Source: a virus
Direction: 5' to 3' (one strand)
Virus record (IMG/VR): IMGVR_UViG_3300027747_001183
DNA: 64,000 bases
In this document: positions 31,619 to 46,478 of the stretch, one piece after another
How the letters are laid out: every line of letters begins with the position of its first letter
How positions within the stretch are numbered: the first letter of the stretch is position 1
Notes under the pieces: generated by a model
What the model saw: only the letters and a program-made list of their open reading frames with translations
The model's database searches: none
Told to the model about the DNA's origin: nothing
Made by a program: the position numbers and the translations under genes

Positions 31619-32989
31619 TTAGAGAAGGTTCGATACAAGAACGCGACGGTAGTAGATGTTCGTATCTTCTTCTAGTGCACCAGATGTGTCAGGAGCAGTA
31701 GCACCCTTAGCGAATGGGTTTGGTACGATGCCGTAGCGAGTCTTGAAACCAATCTTTGGCTGGAAGGAATCCTGACCAACCGCACGAACCATCTGAAGTG
31801 GAACGTATGGGCAGTAGAAGAGACCAGCGTCGAATGCGTTTGCACCTTTATAGCCGACGACTAGGTAGTTGCCAGTAGTATATGGGTCGATGTAGACGCG
31901 GAAGCGACCGTTGAGGATACCAGCGAAGGTGTTGCCAGTGTCGTCAACCTGTAGGTTGTTGCTGTTTAGAGCTGGAGCGTAGTCGAGAACGCCTGCCATC
32001 TGAAGAGCAGAAGCTACGTCAGAGGAGCAGATGATCACGTTACCCTTGCCACGACGAGTGTCCTTGGCAATCTGGTTAGCTTCACGCTCGATCTGGAACA
32101 TAAGACCCTTGAACTTTTCAACTGACCAACGACCGTTTGAGTCGGTGTCAAGGTCGAAGATGCCCTGAGTAACTGTACCAGTGTTTGCACCGCGGACTGC
32201 AGTGATGTTGATCGAACGAACTACTTCACGGTTGATTTCAGCAAGGATTTCAGACTGAAGGATGTTCGCTAGTTCAGTCTCAGCGTCTAGACCATGGATT
32301 GCCTTAAGGTCCTGTGCAAGTTCCATAGTGTATTCTGCCTTGAGGGCGCGTGACTTAGCAGTAACAGTCTGCTTGTCGATCGAGAACGCCATTTCAGCGA
32401 ATGCAACGTTTGAAGTCGAACCAAGAGCTTCAGACTGCTGAGTGTTTGCGCCGCCAGCGAAGTTGTAGAGGTTGTTGTTGGCGATCGCAGTAGTCTGTGA
32501 AGTGTTACCTGGAACAGTACCGACGTTCTTGTTGCCGATAGTGTTAGCATTCGAGATGCCAGGTGAAGAGAATGCAGTGTTAGCTTCGTTGTAAAGTGCT
32601 TCTGCAGTAGTACGAGCAGTCGAGTTAGCGTAGTTAGCACGCATTGCGAAGATGAGTCCAGTTGGACCAGTCATTGGCTGAACGCCGCAGATGTCGTATG
32701 CGATGAGGTTAGGCATTGCACGACGGACTAGGGAGATGAGGATTGGGTCGTAACCAGCAACGCCAGTACCACCTGCGCCAGCATAACCGCCAGTACCTGC
32801 AGAGTTAGTTGGTGAAGTCTCGAAGAGAGACTGTGGATTGAAAGCTGCTTGTTCCTTGATGGCGATCTCAGTGTTCTCAAGGATCTGTGCAGTGACGTTG
32901 CGACGATGCGAGTCACCGATCTTTGGGAGCTCTGAGTGCTCAAGAACTGGCTTCCACTTAGCTACTAAACTTTCATAATTGTAGTTCAT
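31619..32989 (-). CDS. 23: Major capsid protein gp23
   Basis: LVRRAMPNLIAYDICGVQPMTGPTG, SRALKAEYT and FQPKIGFKTRYG. Confidence 0.98.
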   Translation of the reverse strand: MNYNYESLVAKWKPVLEHSELPKIGDSHRRNVTAQILENTEIAIKEQAAFNPQSLFETSPTNSAGTGGYAGAGGTGVAGYDPILISLVRRAMPNLIAYDICGVQPMTGPTGLIFAMRANYANSTARTTAEALYNEANTAFSSPGISNANTIGNKNVGTVPGNTSQTTAIANNNLYNFAGGANTQQSEALGSTSNVAFAEMAFSIDKQTVTAKSRALKAEYTMELAQDLKAIHGLDAETELANILQSEILAEINREVVRSINITAVRGANTGTVTQGIFDLDTDSNGRWSVEKFKGLMFQIEREANQIAKDTRRGKGNVIICSSDVASALQMAGVLDYAPALNSNNLQVDDTGNTFAGILNGRFRVYIDPYTTGNYLVVGYKGANAFDAGLFYCPYVPLQMVRAVGQDSFQPKIGFKTRYGIVPNPFAKGATAPDTSGALEEDTNIYYRRVLVSNLL

Positions 32990-33034: not shown

Positions 33035-34294
33035 TTACTTCTTGACCGTATTAGACAGTGATTTTACGTATGCCTGCATGTCAGGTGCGACATATTGTGC
33101 AGCTTCTGGCTCCTCTACAGACTCGCTAAGGAGCTGATCCTGGGTCACCTTAACTTCACTCTTGCCTGCAAAATAAGTTTCTTTAATGATATTAGCCTTC
33201 TTGACAAACTCTTCTGCCGAAGAATAGTCCACAGCCTCAATCAGCTTTGTAAACTTCTCTTTCTGAGTATCAGTCATGCCTTCAGACAGCTCATCTGCAG
33301 CTTCCTTGACTTTCTTCTCAGACACTACCTTAGTAAGCTCGATGTTCTTCTCAGTAGTCTCATTGATCTGGGACTCTAGAGCTTCTACCATTGCGAGCAG
33401 CGACTCGACTACAGATACTTCGTCGTCTGGAATGTCGAGGTGGTGCTCGTTGAAGAGGTTGTATAGACCTGCAAGGAAAGACTCAGTGACTTCAGTCTTG
33501 ATGTTCTCTTCTACTGCAAGCTTGTTCTGTTCAATCCACTCAGCTACTGCGTAGTTGAGGTAGCTGTCGATGTTCTCTTCCATCTCTTCCTTGATAGAGT
33601 CAAGGGCTTCCTGAGCTTCCTCAGCTAGCTCTTCCTCGATCTTAGCTACTTCTAGTGCAACGCGTGTACCGACTGCAGCCTCAAAGATAGTTCCGATCTT
33701 GTCCTTGAACTCTTCCGAAAGGTCCTGTGAGTCGCCGAATACTAGCTCAAGGTCTTCCTTTGCGATCTGCTTCATGGCTTCTGCTGGAGCGCTAGCTGAC
33801 TGGATAGATGTCTTGTTCTTGTTAGCGTCACCGTTAGCGTATGAAGTATTGTTGTCGAACACTTCTTCTGGTGAGTGCGTCATTTCTTCTGGATTAGCTA
33901 GAGTTGCAACGAATGCTGCTAGCTCCATTGGGGCCATCATTGTAGCATACTGAACCATGGTCCTCATGAGGTCAGAGCGCGATACGTTAGTTGGGTTAGC
34001 GTCGATGGTACTGCCGTTCTGAGTCATGGCAACATCTTCCTTAACTTCTTTGAACTCAGAAGCATGCTTTACTAGAGTATGTATAGGATACTTACCAAGA
34101 GCTCCATGTGTGATTGTCTTATTTGTATTTTTATCAACCATATCAGGCCCATCGAAGTAGACTGTACGGCCTGTTTCCTTACGAATGATCTTACCAGCAT
34201 GTATCTGCTGATCGTGTTGGACCGGGGAGCGCCCGTCATCCACTACATTAGCTTCATCTAGTTCGTTCTGGACGTTTAGATTTTCGTTAGACAT
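33035..34294 (-). CDS. 22: Prohead core scaffolding protein gp22 with an N-terminal extension
   Basis: LSEEFK..IFEAAV, YLNYAVAEW and ESFLAGL; lies between gp21 and gp23. Confidence 0.9.
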   Translation of the reverse strand: MSNENLNVQNELDEANVVDDGRSPVQHDQQIHAGKIIRKETGRTVYFDGPDMVDKNTNKTITHGALGKYPIHTLVKHASEFKEVKEDVAMTQNGSTIDANPTNVSRSDLMRTMVQYATMMAPMELAAFVATLANPEEMTHSPEEVFDNNTSYANGDANKNKTSIQSASAPAEAMKQIAKEDLELVFGDSQDLSEEFKDKIGTIFEAAVGTRVALEVAKIEEELAEEAQEALDSIKEEMEENIDSYLNYAVAEWIEQNKLAVEENIKTEVTESFLAGLYNLFNEHHLDIPDDEVSVVESLLAMVEALESQINETTEKNIELTKVVSEKKVKEAADELSEGMTDTQKEKFTKLIEAVDYSSAEEFVKKANIIKETYFAGKSEVKVTQDQLLSESVEEPEAAQYVAPDMQAYVKSLSNTVKK

Positions 34295-34335: not shown

Positions 34336-34995
34336 TTAGAGATTTGAAACGAAGTGCTTGAATACTCTCAGTTTAGCCTCTTCTAGCTCAGTCTTAGTGA
34401 CCTTGCGAGCGGCTTCCTCGATATGAGCCTTCGCCTTCTCGAGTTCTTGGGCCTTGAGAACTCCATTGTCCCATACCCACTCGACTCCCTCCATGATGCC
34501 GTTTACGAATGCATTCGGTGCAGACGGGTCTGCTACGATGTCGCCGGCAGTGGCTAGGTAGAAGTCGTCCTGTACTACGTGAACGCCGTTGACTTCTTTT
34601 AGCGAGCCCATTCCACGGGTAGATACTCCGAGCTGTACTCCAGACTCGATCAAGTTTCGTGCAATCTCGCCCATTGGTGTAGGTAGGATCATTGCCTTGC
34701 CGATGAAGTTGTTACCTTCTGGAACTAGAGAAACGATCTTATGAGAGATGCGGTCTAGGTTAAGTGAAGGACCTTCTGGGTGGCCGAGCTCTCCAAGAGC
34801 GCGACCCTTGTTCACGTAGTCTTCAACGTATCTGTTGACTTCGCGAGTAACGGACTCAAGACGATACATGCGCCCGTTGCGGTTCTTTACTTCCGTCTGG
34901 ATAAACGGTCCATGGATATAGAGGTTCTTCTTTCCCTCTACACCCTCTTCGGTGATTACCTTAAGTTCTTCGTTTAGTTCTGTGATGAGTTTCAT
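34336..34995 (-). CDS. 21: Prohead protease gp21
   Basis: MKLITE, NRNGR, GELGHP, GVSTRGMGS and DIVADPS. Confidence 0.96.
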   Translation of the reverse strand: MKLITELNEELKVITEEGVEGKKNLYIHGPFIQTEVKNRNGRMYRLESVTREVNRYVEDYVNKGRALGELGHPEGPSLNLDRISHKIVSLVPEGNNFIGKAMILPTPMGEIARNLIESGVQLGVSTRGMGSLKEVNGVHVVQDDFYLATAGDIVADPSAPNAFVNGIMEGVEWVWDNGVLKAQELEKAKAHIEEAARKVTKTELEEAKLRVFKHFVSNL

Positions 34996-35007: not shown

Positions 35008-35286
35008 TTAATTTTTATAAGCAACTGGTGTAGCTGCCAAAGAAACACCTGAATGGTTTGACGTTATAATATCTGTTTTACCTTTTTCTACGATAAAACT
35101 TTCTCCACCTACAATAGACACACTCCACAAGATTGTTGTGTTAGTTGAGTCTTTGCATGTAATTACAGCTAAAGTTGTTATTGCACCTGCATGTGACATC
35201 AATACTAAAGAACTATTACCATAAGAACTAAAAGTTGAAGTATTACAACTTGATGTATTGCCAGTTGGTTTAATTATAGCAGCCAT
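35008..35286 (-). CDS. Small hypothetical virion-associated protein
   Basis: 92-aa ORF coupled (TAATG) to the long upstream gene. Confidence 0.7.
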   Translation of the reverse strand: MAAIIKPTGNTSSCNTSTFSSYGNSSLVLMSHAGAITTLAVITCKDSTNTTILWSVSIVGGESFIVEKGKTDIITSNHSGVSLAATPVAYKN

Positions 35287-38200
35287 TAGATTCCATGCTC
35301 CTCTGCAAATGCTAGAAGAGTGTCGATGCCGTCTTGTGAACCAAGCATGTCATCGAACTTAACCCTGTTCTCTTCTGAGAGCGTATCATATAGACGCTCT
35401 AGTACTTCTTCTGCCATCTTCTTCTTCTTTGACCTAAGAAGCTTAAAGTCTATCTTGGTAAGCTTCTCGTCACGGTTCATGTCTAGGTTCTTCTGTCCAC
35501 CAACTAATTCTTCTACCTTGATCTCTCTCTTTGCTGCCCTAACGAACTTAGGGCGACCATTCGGGAAGACTCTGATAATCATGGGACCCCTTGCAGAATC
35601 CTTTGTAGTTACGTCAGTGTCTTCATTTCTTATAGATCTCTTAGTCATAGATCCGAGAGATACCCTTGGCTTCTTTTCTACTGCAGGGGGCTTGCCGTGC
35701 TTCACTACGTGCATGAAGTGTTCGTGCGAGTGAGCCAGGGCATTCTGTACTTCTTCTTTCTTACCCATAGCTACCGTAGTATTTGCATGTATCTCAAGGG
35801 CTTTTGCTACGTGCTTTGGATCTACGAGGTGCTTCTCGCCGTTCTCAAAAGTAAGCTTGTGCATACCGTTGACTGGAGCCTTGTGCATCTGGTTGATGAT
35901 GTTGTTATTTGCTGCGCGTTCTACGCGATCTGACTCTTCTTCGTCGTCGCCCTTCTTCTCTACTACGTAGTCTTCACCCATGCGGTTCATGAAGTTGCCG
36001 TAGCTGGAAGCCATCTTACCAGACTGGCTGTAAGATGGAGCTGAGTCAGAAGTCTTATCTTTATCGCCATAGACCATATAGTCATGGACTCCAGAGATCA
36101 TCTCCTTGGCAGAAGCGATCTTTGACTGTACCCATGGCTCGATGTGCATGCTCTGAGACATATTGTTCATCATGTCTTCAGCTTTAGCGCATATAGCCTT
36201 GAGCTCAGTGCGCACCATCGACACCTCATCAGAGACGTAGTCGTTGTCTTCATATGCCTCGTTGCGCTGCTTTGAATAGTAGGCAGCCATCGCCTGCTTC
36301 ATTCGTTCTTTCTTTGACTTGCCTGCTAAATTAGAAGCTTTACTGTGAACAAAGTCTGATATCCAAGTACCAATAGGAGTCTTCTTTGTAAGGACTTCAT
36401 TGACTTGCTCGACTTCTTCATTCTGTTTAGTAGAAGATTCTTTTTTCTGTCTTTCAAGATCTCGAATTTGATCTAGAATAGTGTTCCTCTTATTACGAAG
36501 TCCTTCTTCTCTAGGACTCATAGTTCTGCTTCCTCTATTTCTGCGAGCTTGTTGTGCGCGTCCATATAGAACATCATGACGATTATATTGGTTTTGCAAG
36601 CTTGCAATCTTCTTGTCGATGTTTTCATTGACTTGCTCGACTTCTTCAGCAACAGATATAGTACCTATATGACGACCAATTGGTTGTTTTTTATTACGAA
36701 TATAATATAAATGAGTATTTTCCTCACCATACTTATTTGTATGACTAATTGTATGACCTGGAATATCAGCTCTAATACGCCCAGGACCATAACGATCTCT
36801 CATTGCTTTTTTGTGGGCGTCTGGTACTGTTGCTTCATAAAGTTCAACTTCTTCTTTAATTCTTCTTAAAGCACTAGGTTCTACGATTGTTTTTGTACCA
36901 CCCATTGTTGTAATACGAGATTGCGTACCTGTTATAAATCCACCAAAGTCTACTTCATGATCACCATTAGGTAAAATTTTTGTTATAATACCTTTATGGC
37001 CATGAGAAGCAGATCCTGGAGCATGGATTTTTACAAGATCACCAACATGGTGTGCTTCATCAATAGTTCCAGTAATGCCTTTTCTAAGAACAGTATCTTT
37101 TTCTTGTTCGCCTTTAGAAAGAGCATAAAAAGGTGTTCGTTGAAGTTTTTCTCTAGCAGCTTGTTTTTCTGGATTAGGTGCAGGCACTTGATTAACTGTT
37201 TTACCCCAACCTTTATGAACTTCAGAATCTTGTGCTCTAGAATTACCACCCATTCTTTTAGATGTAAGAGCAGCATGAGCGCTATTAAAATTCGCCACAG
37301 AACCAAACCCTTGCTTTCTTCTATTACCAGCGATAGGTGACACACCACCTTTAGTAGTACCATAGTGATATTTTGTATTTAATGCTTCATCACCTCGAGT
37401 CGCTGCACGTGCAGTTCTTACATTTTGTACTCCAGGACTTACAGGACGAAATGTTCCTTTTTTACCCATTTCATTGACTTGCTCGACTTCTTCATTCTTC
37501 ATAGGTTTTCTAGAATAAACGTCAACGCGTGCGCTGTGCTCAGGCTTGATGTCTTGAGATGTCATCCTATAGTGTTTGCCGCCCCTCTTATAAAGGTGCT
37601 TGAACTTATCGAGAGGAGTGCGGCCGCGAACCCTGTGTCCGCCGACGGCTTTGCTCTTCATGTCAGCGAGCTTCTCGTCGTAGTCGGGATCGTCTTTCTT
37701 AATAGTGCCGATGTAGGTGTCGGTACGACTCGCTTCGTCGAGCTCAACGTCTTCGTTCTTCATAGCTGCTTTACGGGCTTTTTCATCTCTCATCATCTTT
37801 ACAATGTTTGGTGAACCAAACTCTGGAGCTTTCTTCATTGTGTCAGAATAAAGCTTTGGCTTAGACATAGTTGACTTTGCTTCATCAAGTTCTGCTTCTT
37901 TTTTCATTGAAGTGTAGCCAAGACCAGACCAGTGCTTCTTGTGTACGTGACCGAGAACGAAGTCGCGAGGATCAGTGTCCATCTTGGCAAGATGGTTCTT
38001 TAGACCTTCGAGGTGACCGTGCTCGATATGGTGAGCAGCCTGAAGCATGTCATGCCTATCGATGCCGCCATGCTCGCGCGCATAATTTCTAAGCTCTTTA
38101 TGGTCGCCAAGTGAGTGGCTCATGTTTGCTTCGTTGTGAATCTTCTTTAGAGTCTGTGCGAGCTTTAGGCCCCTGTCATATGCCTGTGCAGACTGGTCAC

Positions 38201-38387
38201 CTTCGTATGATGCAGTCTTTGGATCTTCCCTGCGCTTGTTGCCGTTGAATACGTGCTCTTGATCAGTAACGCCTGGAACTAAGTTCTTGTGATCGACCGA
38301 GTGAAGAGCCTTGAAGTTCTTCTCACCCTGTGATAGAGGCTGCTGAGTCTCTTTGAGAGACTTCTTTAAGAGGTCATACATTTTCAT
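35286..38387 (-). CDS. Modular prohead-core-region protein (~1033 aa), candidate cleavable polyprotein
   Basis: Sits in the gp68/internal-protein slot; repeated EEVEQVNE, EDVELDEA, EEVELYEA and EAELDEA linkers separate basic modules. Confidence 0.8.
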   Translation of the reverse strand: MKMYDLLKKSLKETQQPLSQGEKNFKALHSVDHKNLVPGVTDQEHVFNGNKRREDPKTASYEGDQSAQAYDRGLKLAQTLKKIHNEANMSHSLGDHKELRNYAREHGGIDRHDMLQAAHHIEHGHLEGLKNHLAKMDTDPRDFVLGHVHKKHWSGLGYTSMKKEAELDEAKSTMSKPKLYSDTMKKAPEFGSPNIVKMMRDEKARKAAMKNEDVELDEASRTDTYIGTIKKDDPDYDEKLADMKSKAVGGHRVRGRTPLDKFKHLYKRGGKHYRMTSQDIKPEHSARVDVYSRKPMKNEEVEQVNEMGKKGTFRPVSPGVQNVRTARAATRGDEALNTKYHYGTTKGGVSPIAGNRRKQGFGSVANFNSAHAALTSKRMGGNSRAQDSEVHKGWGKTVNQVPAPNPEKQAAREKLQRTPFYALSKGEQEKDTVLRKGITGTIDEAHHVGDLVKIHAPGSASHGHKGIITKILPNGDHEVDFGGFITGTQSRITTMGGTKTIVEPSALRRIKEEVELYEATVPDAHKKAMRDRYGPGRIRADIPGHTISHTNKYGEENTHLYYIRNKKQPIGRHIGTISVAEEVEQVNENIDKKIASLQNQYNRHDVLYGRAQQARRNRGSRTMSPREEGLRNKRNTILDQIRDLERQKKESSTKQNEEVEQVNEVLTKKTPIGTWISDFVHSKASNLAGKSKKERMKQAMAAYYSKQRNEAYEDNDYVSDEVSMVRTELKAICAKAEDMMNNMSQSMHIEPWVQSKIASAKEMISGVHDYMVYGDKDKTSDSAPSYSQSGKMASSYGNFMNRMGEDYVVEKKGDDEEESDRVERAANNNIINQMHKAPVNGMHKLTFENGEKHLVDPKHVAKALEIHANTTVAMGKKEEVQNALAHSHEHFMHVVKHGKPPAVEKKPRVSLGSMTKRSIRNEDTDVTTKDSARGPMIIRVFPNGRPKFVRAAKREIKVEELVGGQKNLDMNRDEKLTKIDFKLLRSKKKKMAEEVLERLYDTLSEENRVKFDDMLGSQDGIDTLLAFAEEHGI
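36396..37494. repeat. Three exact 25-bp direct repeats encoding EEVEQVNE
   Basis: TTCATTGACTTGCTCGACTTCTTCA at 36396-36420, 36624-36648 and 37470-37494; spacings of 228 and 846 bp keep the frame. Confidence 0.95.
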
Positions 38388-38601
38388 CTGATTGTTCTTC
38401 CTGATCTGTGGTTTCTTGTTCCTCAGAATCGACTGCTTCTTGCTGACCGTCAGTAGCACCAAAGATGCTAGCGGCTACATCAGGAAACATCGCGTCAACT
38501 GCGTCGGCCACCTTAGATGTCATGATATCGTCGATCGCGGTCTTTAGTCCGACTGCGTCCTTGTTGAATGCGCTAGTAAAGATGTCAGCGATAGTAGTCA
38601 T
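38374..38601 (-). CDS. Small acidic prohead core protein (gp67-like by position)
   Basis: 75 aa with an acidic tail, directly after the portal; late promoter and GGAGG RBS. Confidence 0.7.
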   Translation of the reverse strand: MTTIADIFTSAFNKDAVGLKTAIDDIMTSKVADAVDAMFPDVAASIFGATDGQQEAVDSEEQETTDQEEQSDENV

Positions 38602-38625: not shown

Positions 38626-38633
38626 TATTTATA
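38626..38633 (-). promoter_or_regulatory. T4 late promoter
   Basis: TATAAATA. Confidence 0.8.
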
Positions 38634-38634
38634 A

Positions 38635-40251
38635 TTAGTAGGCTTCGCCGGACCCAGACACCTTAGTACCCTGTTCTACGCCTGTAGTCTGGGATTGGTT
38701 TCCGGTTCCGTCTAGTTCTGGTCTATTTGCGATGGGCGGCGGCGGTGGAGCCATACCTGGGTCCTGAGGAGGAAGCATTGGAACTTTCTCTTCTGCCATC
38801 TCGTCCATCATGTCTGCTATCTCCTGCTCGCTCTGGAACAGGATGTTCTTGCGTACCCACAGGTCTGAATAGTAGCGTCCAATGTAGGGCATGACTTGGT
38901 TCAGAAGCTGCAGCCTGTTCTGCATGATCTCGATCTCTTTGAACTCTTCAAAGTGGTTGTCCACAGTAAAGTCAAAGTGAATCTGATTCTCTAGCTCTTT
39001 CCAGTCTTCCTCAGAAACTATACCCTTAAGGACTAGCTGCTTCTCGAGGGCTTTTAAGAACAGCATAGAGAACCTGCGACGCAGGCGTCCTACAAACTTA
39101 GTAAACTTTACCTCGTCTCTCGAGATCTCAGACGCCCTGCCGAGGATGTTTGCGGACTCTTGGTTGAGACGGGAAACTGGAACGTTGAGTGCCTGATAGA
39201 GCTTCTTCTGGAAGTACTCTACGTCGGTCATCTCGCCGAGGTTCTGCCCTGCTGGGAGGGTAGTGATCTCGGTGCCCTTGTTGCCTTCCCTTCTCGGAAG
39301 CCAGTAGTCCTCGAGCATCGTCATGTACTTACGATCGTCGCGCACCTCACCCGAAGTGGCGTCGTATACTAGACGGTTCTTGTGGCGGACCATCATGTCG
39401 CGAAGGTACTGCTCAGCCTTTACCTTAGGTAGATTTCCAACGTCAATATAGAATATGCGACGCTCAGGAGCGCGAGAAATACGATAGATAACCGTAGCAT
39501 CTTCGAGCGTCCTTAGCTGGTTTAGCGGCTTGATAGCCTTCTGCACGTACGAGTAGACCAGCTGGTTGTTCTTATCAGTCAGCCCAGAAGTAACGTGGAT
39601 TATTGAGTCGATTGATATTCTTAGACCGCCGGTAGAGTTGTTGTCCTGCGCTATGCCCGCATTTCCGGGTGCTGCCATGAAAGTGCGGTCTGAGTATACG
39701 TAGTACTCACGCTTTACTTTCTGGACTACGATCGGCCCCTTGGCTTCTTTCTTTACTTCGCGTATCTTCCTGACCTTTCTAGGGTCTAGATAGCGAAGCT
39801 CTTGGATTCCAAGGCGTGGATTCTTCTCGTCAATGATGAGGTGATAGTACATACGGCCGTCGACGTACCATCTCTTGAAGAGCTCGTACGCCTCGATCTG
39901 AAAGTTAAAGAGCTTGAGGATAGTCTTGAACTCTTCCCTTATCTTCTGCTTGATAGGGTCGCCGTATTCTACCTTGTCGAGATTAATGTCGATTATCTTC
40001 TCGGCGTCGGTGTCGATAGCTTCGTTGACGATGTCGTCGATGGCTGCTTCGAGTTCAGGCTGTAGTGAGATCTCTCTGTACTTAGCTACTAGCTCAGCCT
40101 CAGTGCGGGCGGTGCCGTCTAAGTCAATGAAGGTGCCGTAGGATCCACCCGCAGCAACGACGACTGCGCCGTCGTCCTTTATCTCTGGGGCAAAGGACTC
40201 TAACGGAGTCTCGTCTTTTCTCTTGATTTCAAATCCAAATAACTGCATCAC
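38635..40251 (-). CDS. 20: Portal vertex protein gp20
   Basis: RAPERRIFYIDVGNLP, MLEDYWLPRREG and RDEVKF. Confidence 0.97.
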   Translation of the reverse strand: MMQLFGFEIKRKDETPLESFAPEIKDDGAVVVAAGGSYGTFIDLDGTARTEAELVAKYREISLQPELEAAIDDIVNEAIDTDAEKIIDINLDKVEYGDPIKQKIREEFKTILKLFNFQIEAYELFKRWYVDGRMYYHLIIDEKNPRLGIQELRYLDPRKVRKIREVKKEAKGPIVVQKVKREYYVYSDRTFMAAPGNAGIAQDNNSTGGLRISIDSIIHVTSGLTDKNNQLVYSYVQKAIKPLNQLRTLEDATVIYRISRAPERRIFYIDVGNLPKVKAEQYLRDMMVRHKNRLVYDATSGEVRDDRKYMTMLEDYWLPRREGNKGTEITTLPAGQNLGEMTDVEYFQKKLYQALNVPVSRLNQESANILGRASEISRDEVKFTKFVGRLRRRFSMLFLKALEKQLVLKGIVSEEDWKELENQIHFDFTVDNHFEEFKEIEIMQNRLQLLNQVMPYIGRYYSDLWVRKNILFQSEQEIADMMDEMAEEKVPMLPPQDPGMAPPPPPIANRPELDGTGNQSQTTGVEQGTKVSGSGEAY

Positions 40252-44936: not shown

Positions 44937-45750
44937 TGTTAGTTGTCGGGAAGTCCGTTTGTGTTATGATGTAGTCATAGTTACTAGTCTCATCAATAGA
45001 CTGGTAAGATACAGTATTAGCCAGAAGAATAGTCGGATTACCATTTGCGTCTAGTCCGGGCTGCGTAGTAGTCTGAGTTATTGCTATGTTGGCTTCCATC
45101 GGCGCAAATGAATTGATCGTGGCTATCTTGATCACCTTAGCCTGCGAAGTAGGACCGTAGAGGTATGCCTTCATCGTGAAATCGATTCTCCAGACGAGTG
45201 CTCGCCTCTCTGTGAATGCGGCATCATATGTGTCTTGATACTGAACTGACTTTATGATGACCGGTATGTCTGTATAGCCATCAAAGTCTTGAAGAAGCTT
45301 TGCAGATACAGTCCACTCCGGAGTAAAGTAAGGAAGGATCTGCTCGACGATTCTAGTGCCGTCTTCAGTCTCCTTGACCATGATAGATAGTTCAAAGTCT
45401 ATGTCGTAGGGTACCGGAGTATAGACTTTCTGAAGTACGCTGTTTCCGTTGACATTGTTCTTGGTGTAGTACGGGACTGTAGTCTGGAGCTTGCGATCAG
45501 AAGCGTAGGATATGCCGGTAATCTCGAACCCCATCCTTGGAAGTGAGATTGCCGTCTTTGCTATACCGGTAGGGTTTGCCTCTACGCGCGCTAGGAACTT
45601 ATCGCGAGGACCGTACGCAATTGGTACCGTGAAGGTACTGTTTACTGAGCCATCGGTGTTGTGTCTCTCGACCTTGATGTTGTTGAACAGGGTGCCGAAG
45701 ATGACTACGTACTTCCTAAAGAGTGAGTGATAGTAGGGAACTGAAAGCAT
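44926..45750 (-). CDS. 15: Tail sheath stabiliser / completion protein gp15
   Basis: FGTLFNNI, VPIAYGP, LPRMGFE and QILPYFTP. Confidence 0.93.
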   Translation of the reverse strand: MLSVPYYHSLFRKYVVIFGTLFNNIKVERHNTDGSVNSTFTVPIAYGPRDKFLARVEANPTGIAKTAISLPRMGFEITGISYASDRKLQTTVPYYTKNNVNGNSVLQKVYTPVPYDIDFELSIMVKETEDGTRIVEQILPYFTPEWTVSAKLLQDFDGYTDIPVIIKSVQYQDTYDAAFTERRALVWRIDFTMKAYLYGPTSQAKVIKIATINSFAPMEANIAITQTTTQPGLDANGNPTILLANTVSYQSIDETSNYDYIITQTDFPTTNNGP

Positions 45751-46478
45751 TAGAGTTTATTTCCTGTCTCACCGAATGGATCAAACTCAGTAAAGTCTAT
45801 GAAAGATGCTGACTCTTTGTCAAATACTTCGTTTTCAGCCTGTGGATCAATTATGTCTATAGCATAGGTCTCTAGCAGAATAGGCTCGCCTGCTTCTGTA
45901 AGAATAGGAAAACCATTTTCAGTAGTGATCTCGTAAGATGCAGAGTCCAGAGTCAGCGCATTGTATACGTTATCGATCTCTGCTATTCCTGTGCTGAACT
46001 TATCGCTGTTAGCCTCGTACAGCTCACAGGTTAGGTCGTAGCTCTGCAGCGATCCCATCTGAAAGAATACTGGCTTAACGTCTGCGAGCTTGATCTGGTA
46101 TAGAGACTGAGTAAGTGGGAACCATATCAAGTCGCCTTCGTTTGGTCTAGTCTCATAGTCGTAGTTGCCGACTTCAGAAGCAAAAGACCTTCTAGACATA
46201 GTGAATACTATCTGGTCCCTTACCTGTATTCCGAACTTAGACAGGAACTCACCATCGCCCTCGAATCCGTTGACGTTCTTTATATAGACCTCGACGAGGT
46301 ATGAAGATTCAAATGTAAAGTAGGAGCCTTCCCTGAATACGTCGTCTTTATTGTTGACTTTTCTAGGGATGTAGTAGACGTCGATACCGTACATCTTGAT
46401 AGACTCTTCTATCAAGTCTTCAATCAAGTTCTGCTCAGGCGTAGAGCTAAAGTTATTAAAAAAGAAATTAGAAGCCAT
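45750..46478 (-). CDS. 14: Neck protein gp14
   Basis: EQNLIEDL..YYIPR, SKFG, RPNEGDLI and DFTEFDPFG. Confidence 0.93.
   Translation of the reverse strand: MASNFFFNNFSSTPEQNLIEDLIEESIKMYGIDVYYIPRKVNNKDDVFREGSYFTFESSYLVEVYIKNVNGFEGDGEFLSKFGIQVRDQIVFTMSRRSFASEVGNYDYETRPNEGDLIWFPLTQSLYQIKLADVKPVFFQMGSLQSYDLTCELYEANSDKFSTGIAEIDNVYNALTLDSASYEITTENGFPILTEAGEPILLETYAIDIIDPQAENEVFDKESASFIDFTEFDPFGETGNKL

Follow-up and report, generated by a model that had tools for sequence, protein, structure and literature searches.

The internal proteins of phage T4 are the textbook proteins shipped into the host together with the phage DNA, and one of them, IPI*, is a proven anti-restriction factor. The internal proteins IPI, IPII, IPIII and Alt carry a capsid targeting sequence (CTS) and are processed by gp21 (reviewed in PMC9026906 and PMC3012670), a picture associated with the 1996 work of Mullaney and Black; outside the T-even phages, we know of almost no described repertoire of such cargo. 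The T4 internal proteins are basic (PMC9026906, section 2.3), and gp21 cuts after Glu in L/I-X-E, with core proteins being cut at several sites (PMC9026906, section 2.5). Related concepts are the polyvalent proteins of phages and conjugative elements, virion proteins that each unite many conflict-related domains (Iyer, Burroughs, Anand, de Souza, Aravind 2017; PMC5512222), and the inner-body and ejection proteins of the giant phages phiKZ, 201phi2-1 and SPN3US, which are processed by a prohead protease (PMC10052503, PMC5694885, PMC7411985). Here we analyze a gene for a 1033-amino-acid protein in the head operon of an uncultured T4-like phage, contained in a 64,000-nucleotide stretch of DNA (IMG/VR virus record IMGVR_UViG_3300027747_001183) that we call the window.

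The reading that we favour, with a probability of about 0.7, is that this protein is a leader-addressed polyprotein which would become part of the prohead core, where gp21 would divide it, by cuts behind the leader and at a series of acidic joints, into separate, mostly basic internal proteins. A preliminary description of the same DNA had proposed such a precursor of internal proteins, and all parts of that interpretation within reach of sequence analysis came out in favour. It is nevertheless supported only in part, because about 440 of the 1033 residues form conserved domains that are not cassettes and because three weak sites fall off the protease rule. A full-text literature search for leader-headed, protease-joint polyproteins of T4-like phages found none described, in agreement with the earlier statement that the architecture is undescribed, though the polyvalent proteins and the giant-phage propeptides are related concepts. 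The parts of the gene are as follows (a downward arrow marks a predicted or known cut; GC3 is the GC content of third codon positions):

35286-38387, minus strand: polyprotein gene, 1033 amino acids plus stop, starting MKMYDLL
38349-38387, minus strand: leader, residues 1-13, MKMYDLLKKSLKE↓T, ending L-K-E, capsid-targeting-sequence-like
38133-38348, minus strand: residues 14-85, conserved N-terminal family domain (coverage of 342 high-scoring segment pairs; clusters 1 and 6)
37881-38132, minus strand: His-rich variable segment 86-169, ending KEAELDE↓A; in some relatives (cluster 6), absent from contigs L003-L006
37734-37880, minus strand: cassette 170-218, ending NEDVELDE↓A; cluster 32, carried elsewhere in the chain by relatives P0003, P0004 and P0005
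37470-37733, minus strand: cassette 219-306, ending NEEVEQVNE↓M; cluster 5 (23 members), joined in P0090 to a gp67-like N-terminus
37056-37469, minus strand: cassette 307-444, ending TIDE↓A; six-helix domain, GC3 0.109
36834-37055, minus strand: cassette 445-518, ending KEEVELYE↓A; GC3 0.095, homologues in P0049, P0095 and P0146
36624-36833, minus strand: cassette 519-588, ending AEEVEQVNE↓N; GC3 0.143
36396-36623, minus strand: cassette 589-664, ending NEEVEQVNE↓V; predicted helical hairpin, GC3 0.263, near-identical in P0028
35289-36395, minus strand: residues 665-1033, conserved C-terminal family region (369 amino acids, family-wide conservation)

A leader resembling the T4 capsid targeting sequence

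The strongest single argument that the polyprotein would enter the prohead core is its leader, which had gone unremarked in the preliminary description. T4 IPII and IPIII start MKTYQEFIAE↓A (read from NC_000866). Members of the family studied here start MKTFNEIIAE↓IQQPLSQGEKNF (with MKTFNEIIAE↓I also seen among the relatives), MKTFKDLVNE↓VAQPLSQGEKNF, MKTFNQFVTE↓VQAP... and similarly, and the pattern M-K-T-[FY]-x-x-[LIF]-[IVM]-x-E↓ stands at the start of 49 of the 185 family proteins that begin with Met. Family leaders of the form MKTF(K/N)(D/E/Q)(L/I/F)(I/V/M)xE↓ precede the sequence QPLSQGEKNF, which is the same in the polyprotein; the latter starts MKMYDLLKKSLKE↓TQQPLSQGEKNF, a leader variant that is three residues longer and in the same register as the family.

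Targeting by the T4 leader requires its positions 4 and 7, and processing requires positions 8 and 10 (PMC9026906, section 2.6). The family leader keeps an aromatic residue at position 4, a hydrophobic one at 7, L/I/V/M at 8 and Glu at 10, and the leader of the polyprotein has Y4, L7 and L11-K12-E13, in register with the family QPLSQGEKNF. A leader-type start was sought in all other open reading frames (ORFs) of the window and was found in none besides the polyprotein.

Leaders of this type were also seen in other phages and other gene contexts. In Prochlorococcus phage Syn33 (L025, NC_015285; 2677-3834), a capsid-targeting-like leader of T4 type, MKKFSAFLTE↓A, opens the nucleotidyltransferase Syn33_182, a protein with an HxGH motif, and the adjoining Syn33_183 has a His-rich module in common with the C-terminal region of relative P0048. 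Several adjacent genes start with T4-like leaders (MKSFLDLIKE, MKTFRQFINE, MLTFKTYLTE, MKTFKSFITE, MLKFNEYIKE and others) in the lower-GC T4-like IMG/VR contigs L009, L010, L012, L016, L017 and L020, where they adjoin joint-containing proteins and lie outside the gp20-gp21 slot. This arrangement suggests a wider set of leader-addressed cargo in those contigs.

Acidic joints that follow the prohead protease rule

Seven strong internal joints divide the 1033-residue chain: ELDE↓A at residues 169 and 218, EEVEQVNE↓ at 306, 588 and 664, TIDE↓A at 444 and EEVELYE↓A at 518. Every linker listed in the preliminary description is present in the polyprotein, including three sites described there as weaker, IHNE↓A (85), QRNE↓A (710) and IRNE↓D (921). 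These three, however, do not fit L/I/V-x-E, since the residue at P3 is not hydrophobic (at 85 and 921 a hydrophobic residue stands at P4).

In 187 of the relatives 614 joints were counted, with the logo K-K-E-E-V-E-Q-[LIV]-D-E↓[AVL]-[SLK] and with L, I or V at P3 in 569 cases. As this logo depends in part on the search rule, 6-mers were counted rule-free as well, and EEVEQV, KEEVEQ and VEQVDE proved to be the only top words repeated within proteins. Family-wide, EEVEQ is followed by [VILF]-x-E in 87 of 89 cases, which bears out the earlier claim that the linkers match the L/I-X-E rule of gp21. The same peptide is spelled with differing synonymous codons in other phages, even inside one gene, which argues that selection acts on the joint peptide, beyond a mere DNA repeat.

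Sites of the same type occur in the head proteins of the window. Its major capsid protein gp23 has LFE↓T aligned beside the LTE↓A site of T4, its scaffold gp22 begins ...NELDE↓A, and its gp21 has ITE/LNE at residues 6-9, resembling LIE-9 of T4. Apart from ELDE↓A at the start of gp22, the joint motif within the 64-kb window is confined to the polyprotein gene. A lone ELYE↓A match (46014-46025, minus strand), in a 242-amino-acid ORF (45750-46478) upstream of the terminase gene, is probably due to chance.

Basic, mutually unrelated cassettes

K, R and H make up 226 of the 1033 residues and the isoelectric point (pI) of the whole protein is 9.35, in keeping with the earlier description of a chain rich in these residues; without their acidic joints, the cassettes have pI values of 9.5-10.9. 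An internal BLASTP comparison of the cassettes with joints removed detected no likeness among them (best E 0.18). The preliminary description of roughly one dozen unrelated modules needs correction: cassette-like behaviour is limited to residues 86-664, and residues 14-85 and 665-1033 are conserved domains belonging to a large family.

Cassette 307-444 provides the clearest case of an independent unit. Modelled alone with its own alignment by AlphaFold2 (AF2), it forms a six-helix domain with a predicted local distance difference test score (pLDDT) of 88.9 and a predicted template modelling score (pTM) of 0.82, its ends at the joints being disordered; the test by structure prediction that had been proposed earlier came out for an independent domain in this cassette. 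It also exists in stand-alone forms of 137-151 amino acids, each with its own T4-like leader directly followed by the module body: P0099 (151 amino acids, MKTLRDILE↓ARPGTYRP...), P0183 (137, MKSFQEYLEE↓A...) and P0195 (139, MRTFNQFLLE↓YRP...). Inside polyproteins the same cassette follows a joint (...VDE↓MGKKG-[TP]-[FY]-RP), and it begins at the same residues behind the leader as behind the joint. Sixteen residues, including His, Trp, Asn and Asp, are invariant in 21 sequences of this cassette and its relatives. The fold could not be matched convincingly (Foldseek against PDB, best E 0.47; VIA wide, an HD-domain protein as the best match, Z 5.7), profile searching of the PDB produced nothing, and a match to the RyR domain (PF02026) was absent from Pfam searches at E up to 10.

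The full-length AF2 model, built from a 94-row MAFFT alignment, has a mean pLDDT of 59.6. Helices at residues 579-618 and 625-660 exceed 90, and residues 137-575 lie at 30-40. Since cassette 307-444 reached 88.9 with its own alignment, the low values in the middle of the chain point to a poorly aligned mosaic, and disorder there is unproven.

Cassette turnover at the joints

When all the family proteins were split at their joints, 747 modules were obtained, forming 291 clusters, 215 of them singletons. The family architecture is an N-terminal domain, a shuffled series of cassettes and a C-terminal domain, with shared cassettes appearing in varying combinations and orders. Colinear orthologues with no module turnover at the linkers would have refuted the preliminary description, and the comparison clearly gave the opposite: relatives differ by gain, loss, replacement and reordering of cassettes, precisely at the joints. 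Sequence comparison shows that the joints double as places of cassette exchange.

The polyprotein gene itself carries what looks like a trace of such an exchange, in the block of residues 307-664. The three EEVEQVNE joints, at residues 299-306, 581-588 and 657-664, share an exact DNA repeat of 25 nucleotides, with the copies placed as follows:

37470-37494, minus strand: exact 25-nucleotide joint repeat, copy 1, at the 5' edge of the low-GC3 block
36624-36648, minus strand: exact 25-nucleotide joint repeat, copy 2
36396-36420, minus strand: exact 25-nucleotide joint repeat, copy 3, at the 3' edge of the low-GC3 block

The block opens at the first of these repeats and closes at the third. Its four cassettes have the low GC3 values listed above (0.109, 0.095, 0.143 and 0.263), as compared with 0.41-0.60 in the rest of the gene (the minimum being cassette 170-218, the others about 0.5) and 0.49-0.62 in gp20, gp21, gp22 and gp23. 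The closest relatives with a different architecture, contigs L003-L006 (gp23 93%, gp21 89% and gp20 82% identical), match at the DNA level only residues 16-70, 212-306 and 655-911, and have a single 48-residue cassette in place of the 358-residue block. A lower-GC contig, L008 (GC 0.40), carries a 307-444-like cassette with 80% nucleotide identity and a 519-588-like cassette with 71%, the latter upstream of the former, which is the reverse of their order in the polyprotein. The simplest account of the sequence pattern is that block 307-664 came in as a replacement, via recombination at the joints, from a donor of lower GC.

Strains L001 and L002, which are near-identical to this phage, have the same architecture. 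IMG/VR records UViG 3300010157_000752 and 3300033061_000297 are near-identical contigs. The gene differs from that of L001, a 99% identical contig, at 14 nucleotides, ten of which fall in residues 326-359 (37312-37411, minus strand) of cassette 307-444, a cluster that may represent a small gene-conversion patch.

Cassettes also have other carriers. Relatives P0090 and P0092 combine an N-terminus of gp67 type with cassettes via joints, and P0020 and P0028 are leader-plus-cassette chains that do not have the conserved end domains. The gene of P0020 lies outside the head operon and adjoins genes for spanin, primase and ribonucleotide reductase.

Conserved end domains and family searches

Residues 657-785 are the most widespread stretch across the family, and the C-terminal region invariably opens straight after a joint (DE↓VLTK). 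The folded sub-domains that the AF2 model predicts for it are helical bundles (residues 670-775), an alpha/beta unit (830-900) and three closing helices (978-1030). This region may anchor the chain in the core. In the ESM Atlas, the only neighbours of residues 665-1033 were hypothetical clusters of viral origin, scoring below 0.9, one of them with Dockerin_1.

An EF-hand/dockerin-like loop, DMNRDEKLTKIDF, is located at about residues 968-980 (35445-35483, minus strand) and gives a weak Dockerin_1 match; relatives of the polyprotein are automatically named 'EF-hand domain-containing'. Calcium binding by this loop is possible, as judged from its sequence.

Relatives are abundant in metagenomes: 1358 clusters reach E <1e-3 in a 50%-identity library, and 50 relatives have a similar length. 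Pfam and PHROGs searches with the whole protein and with ten pieces assigned no family, the sub-threshold DUF (domain of unknown function) and Dockerin matches being limited to the C-terminal region; the per-cassette Pfam search reached E 10 and the PHROG search E 1. The full-length model matched in BFVD only family members named 'EF-hand domain-containing', and in PDB nothing at E <=0.001. A tblastn search of the polyprotein against 50,697 phage records gave no match, and thus found no cultured phage with a clear family member; relatives P0031 and P0048 matched in the phage records only short stretches of cyanophage hypothetical proteins.

The head operon

The gene belongs to a late structural operon of T4 type, encoded entirely on the minus strand, that also includes the large terminase, sheath and tube genes. 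Neighbouring genes were identified by PHROGs and Pfam:

38635-40251, minus strand: portal gp20 (PF07230, E 3e-173)
38626-38633, minus strand: T4-type late promoter TATAAATA, directly upstream of the gp67-like gene and ahead of the polyprotein gene
38374-38601, minus strand: gp67-like prohead core gene, 75 amino acids (phrog_1064 'prohead', E 5e-4)
35008-35286, minus strand: ORF of 92 amino acids between the polyprotein gene and gp21, without family
34336-34995, minus strand: gp21 prohead protease (S77), the presumed processing enzyme (PF03420, E 8e-32)
33035-34294, minus strand: gp22 scaffold (PF25623, E 1e-58)
31619-32989, minus strand: major capsid protein gp23

The ORF, promoter and neighbours found here agree with the preliminary description, which had placed a late-promoter gene between gp20/gp67-like and gp21. 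Its coordinates for the gene were correct; the gene lies on the minus strand of the stretch as shown, and the 92-amino-acid ORF ahead of gp21 had not been mentioned. The promoter sequence TATAAATA occurs 8 times in the 64-kb window, always on the minus (coding) strand, against an expectation of 1.9. The stop of the gp67-like gene overlaps the start codon of the polyprotein gene; a TTG-extended version of the polyprotein ORF (to 38462) was rejected as unnecessary, and it runs into the gp67-like gene. The gp21 of the window has the invariant motifs GELGH72P (His72) and GVS125xRG (Ser125). The order gp20, gp67-like gene, polyprotein gene, gp21 is kept in 8 IMG/VR loci. The 261-amino-acid protein that Stenotrophomonas phage DLP_6 has in this slot was compared with the polyprotein and shows no likeness to it.

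Two further features of the operon resemble the cassettes. The 92-amino-acid ORF (35008-35286) has a GC3 of 0.161, similar to that of the imported cassettes; L001 has it with 100% conservation, and its homologue was undetected in L003-L006, where a short gap could hide another small ORF. Its low GC3 and this pattern of occurrence suggest that it is probably foreign too. In gp22, residues 1-86 (34037-34294, minus strand) comprise NELDE↓A followed by a basic insert of 72 amino acids ending VKE↓D, with a pI of 8.3 as against 4.3 for the rest and a GC3 of 0.36 as against about 0.5. The gp22 proteins of L003, L004, L013 and L019 do not have this insert, which may be a cargo-like module riding on the scaffold.

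A proposed pathway

If the favoured reading is correct, the leader (residues 1-13) would, judging from its likeness to the T4 leader, bring the chain into the gp22 core during shell assembly. The activated gp21 serine protease would then cut behind the Glu with which the leader and each acidic joint end, the predicted sites being E-E-V-E-Q-[VIL]-[DNE]-E↓, ELDE↓, IDE↓ and LYE↓. Cutting would release six or seven unrelated, mostly basic proteins of 40-140 amino acids, and would also free the conserved N-terminal piece (14-85) and the 369-amino-acid C-terminal piece. By analogy with T4 IPI-III and Alt, the basic pieces would be internal proteins that remain with the DNA, and some of them may pass with it into the host.

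More tentatively, the joint could have two jobs, serving as a peptide for cutting by the prohead protease and as DNA for homology in cassette swaps between T4-like phages that differ strongly in base composition. Combined with the leader tag, this might yield a combinatorial arsenal of head-delivered proteins that phages trade horizontally, some of them counter-defence factors that would be injected before gene expression begins, along with the modified (hydroxymethylcytosine-sugar, hmC-sugar) DNA of this phage. We regard this extended scheme as possible, with the odds somewhat against it.

Alternative explanations

Several observations weigh against the polyprotein as we read it. Cutting and packaging are deduced from the sequence of an uncultured phage. 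The L/I/V-x-E rule is short, and five or six extra matches to it lie inside modules. Family-wide, motif depletion inside modules is modest (786 observed, as compared with 909 +/- 27 in shuffles), and [LIV]E is likewise depleted there, so the depletion is unspecific. Joints 581-588 and 657-664 lie in helices of the full-length AF2 model, which could restrict access of the protease. The cassettes have no function recognisable by Pfam, PHROGs or fold searches, and the conserved C-terminal region, which takes up over one third of the chain, may point to a structural role. BLASTP detected no likeness to IPI, IPII or IPIII beyond the leader, and none to T4 gp68 (best E 3.1). A complex prediction of gp21 with residues 280-330, which span a joint, returned a score of 0.00, 'no answer', and weighs neither way.

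One could ask whether the protein is rather a scaffold-type core protein, a stand-in for gp68 (and gp67/gp22), whose gp21 fragments leave the head before DNA entry and have no later role. It occupies the T4 gp68 slot between gp67 and gp21 and has conserved N- and C-terminal domains, and gp22 of the same phage bears an identical ELDE↓A site; moreover, T4 core proteins are cut into multiple fragments most of which exit the head (PMC9026906, section 2.5), and giant-phage propeptides are also cut at several sites and removed (PMC10052503). Scaffolds, however, are acidic and conserved (gp22 has a pI of 4.3 beyond its insert), whereas the cassettes are basic, hypervariable and horizontally exchanged. 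One cassette also exists as a stand-alone, leader-bearing protein of the internal type, its 16 invariant residues imply a function of its own, and the missing BLASTP likeness to gp68 counts here as well, so that we consider a scaffold-type role unlikely. Should the pieces just exit like scaffold fragments, the finding would shrink to an unusual, fast-evolving core protein. We give even less credit, and see only a slim chance, to one large internal or ejection protein that stays uncut, with the joints as flexible or helical spacers and recombination joints, like polyvalent proteins packaged whole. It draws on the fact that cutting at the joints is itself deduced, on the two joints predicted to be helical and on polyvalent virion proteins such as N4 vRNAP that are packaged unprocessed (PMC5512222). 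Mere spacers would hardly keep a hydrophobic P3 and a Glu at P1 in 87 of 89 EEVEQ continuations, with small or aliphatic residues next, as at gp21 sites; the stand-alone forms of cassette 307-444 begin at the same residue behind a removable leader, and the leader itself ends in the same type of site.

A third possibility is a sub-variant of the favoured polyprotein reading, in which the processed pieces would be mainly counter-ions or condensing proteins for DNA (compare adenovirus core proteins and T4 internal peptides) and not injected anti-defence effectors. The strong net positive charge of the cassettes speaks for it, as do the contacts of T4 internal-protein lysines with DNA phosphates (PMC3012670) and the lack of an enzyme or inhibitor signature in Pfam, PHROG and fold searches of the cassettes. 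Counter-ions would not need a conserved fold, yet cassette 307-444 has a confident six-helix fold with invariant His, Trp, Asn and Asp, and extreme cassette turnover with horizontal import fits an arms race better than charge balance. We therefore view this variant as rather unlikely.

If the leader-addressed polyprotein is real, T4-like phages of aquatic habitats would load their cargo in the form of a cleavable chain and trade its beads with one another. Leader and joint together would then provide a sequence rule by which hundreds of candidate head-delivered proteins could be mined from metagenomes, a direct route to how the prohead protease picks its sites, and a natural model for loading several cargoes into capsids of T4 type, which have already been engineered via the targeting sequence.

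Comparison with known systems

Like the head proteins of giant phages, the polyprotein is predicted to undergo multiple cuts after Glu by a gp21-related protease during maturation. The giant-phage motif is A/S/G-x-E, unlike the joints described here, in which P3 is mostly L/I/V, and the long N-terminal propeptides of those phages are mostly removed; a repeated joint, a cassette array and a T4-type leader are undescribed there. With the polyvalent proteins it would share the principle of a multi-domain virion cargo that is delivered at invasion, possibly cut into units and extensively shuffled in its domains. Polyvalent proteins, however, have recognisable enzymatic domains and usually their own zincin-like (MPTase) peptidase, neither of which was detected in the polyprotein by Pfam, whereas the sites of the polyprotein match a separate prohead protease and its entry would depend on a T4-type leader.

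By its slot, gp20 - gp67 - X - gp21, the gene resembles T4 gp68 and gp67. Both of these T4 proteins are cut by gp21 into several fragments, and gp67-like N-termini carry cassettes in relatives P0090 and P0092. Unlike the polyprotein, T4 gp68 has 141 amino acids and is non-basic and non-modular, and no PHROG core-protein family matches the polyprotein.

The closest parallel is the internal-protein system of T4. The polyprotein has a leader of about 10 residues of the same pattern as IPI, IPII, IPIII and Alt, ending in [LIV]-x-E; an S77 gp21-type protease and a gp22 scaffold, here both in its own operon; and small basic products (predicted), a highly variable cargo behind a constant tag, and late expression. 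Likeness to IPI-III ends with the leader, and processing and ejection are here predicted from the sequence. While T4 uses one gene and one leader for each internal protein, located elsewhere in the genome, the phage described here strings six or seven cassettes together in one ORF of the head operon, and adds to the T4 scheme an acidic joint of extended form (EEVEQVDE), family domains that are conserved at both ends of the chain, and the exchange of cassettes at the joint.

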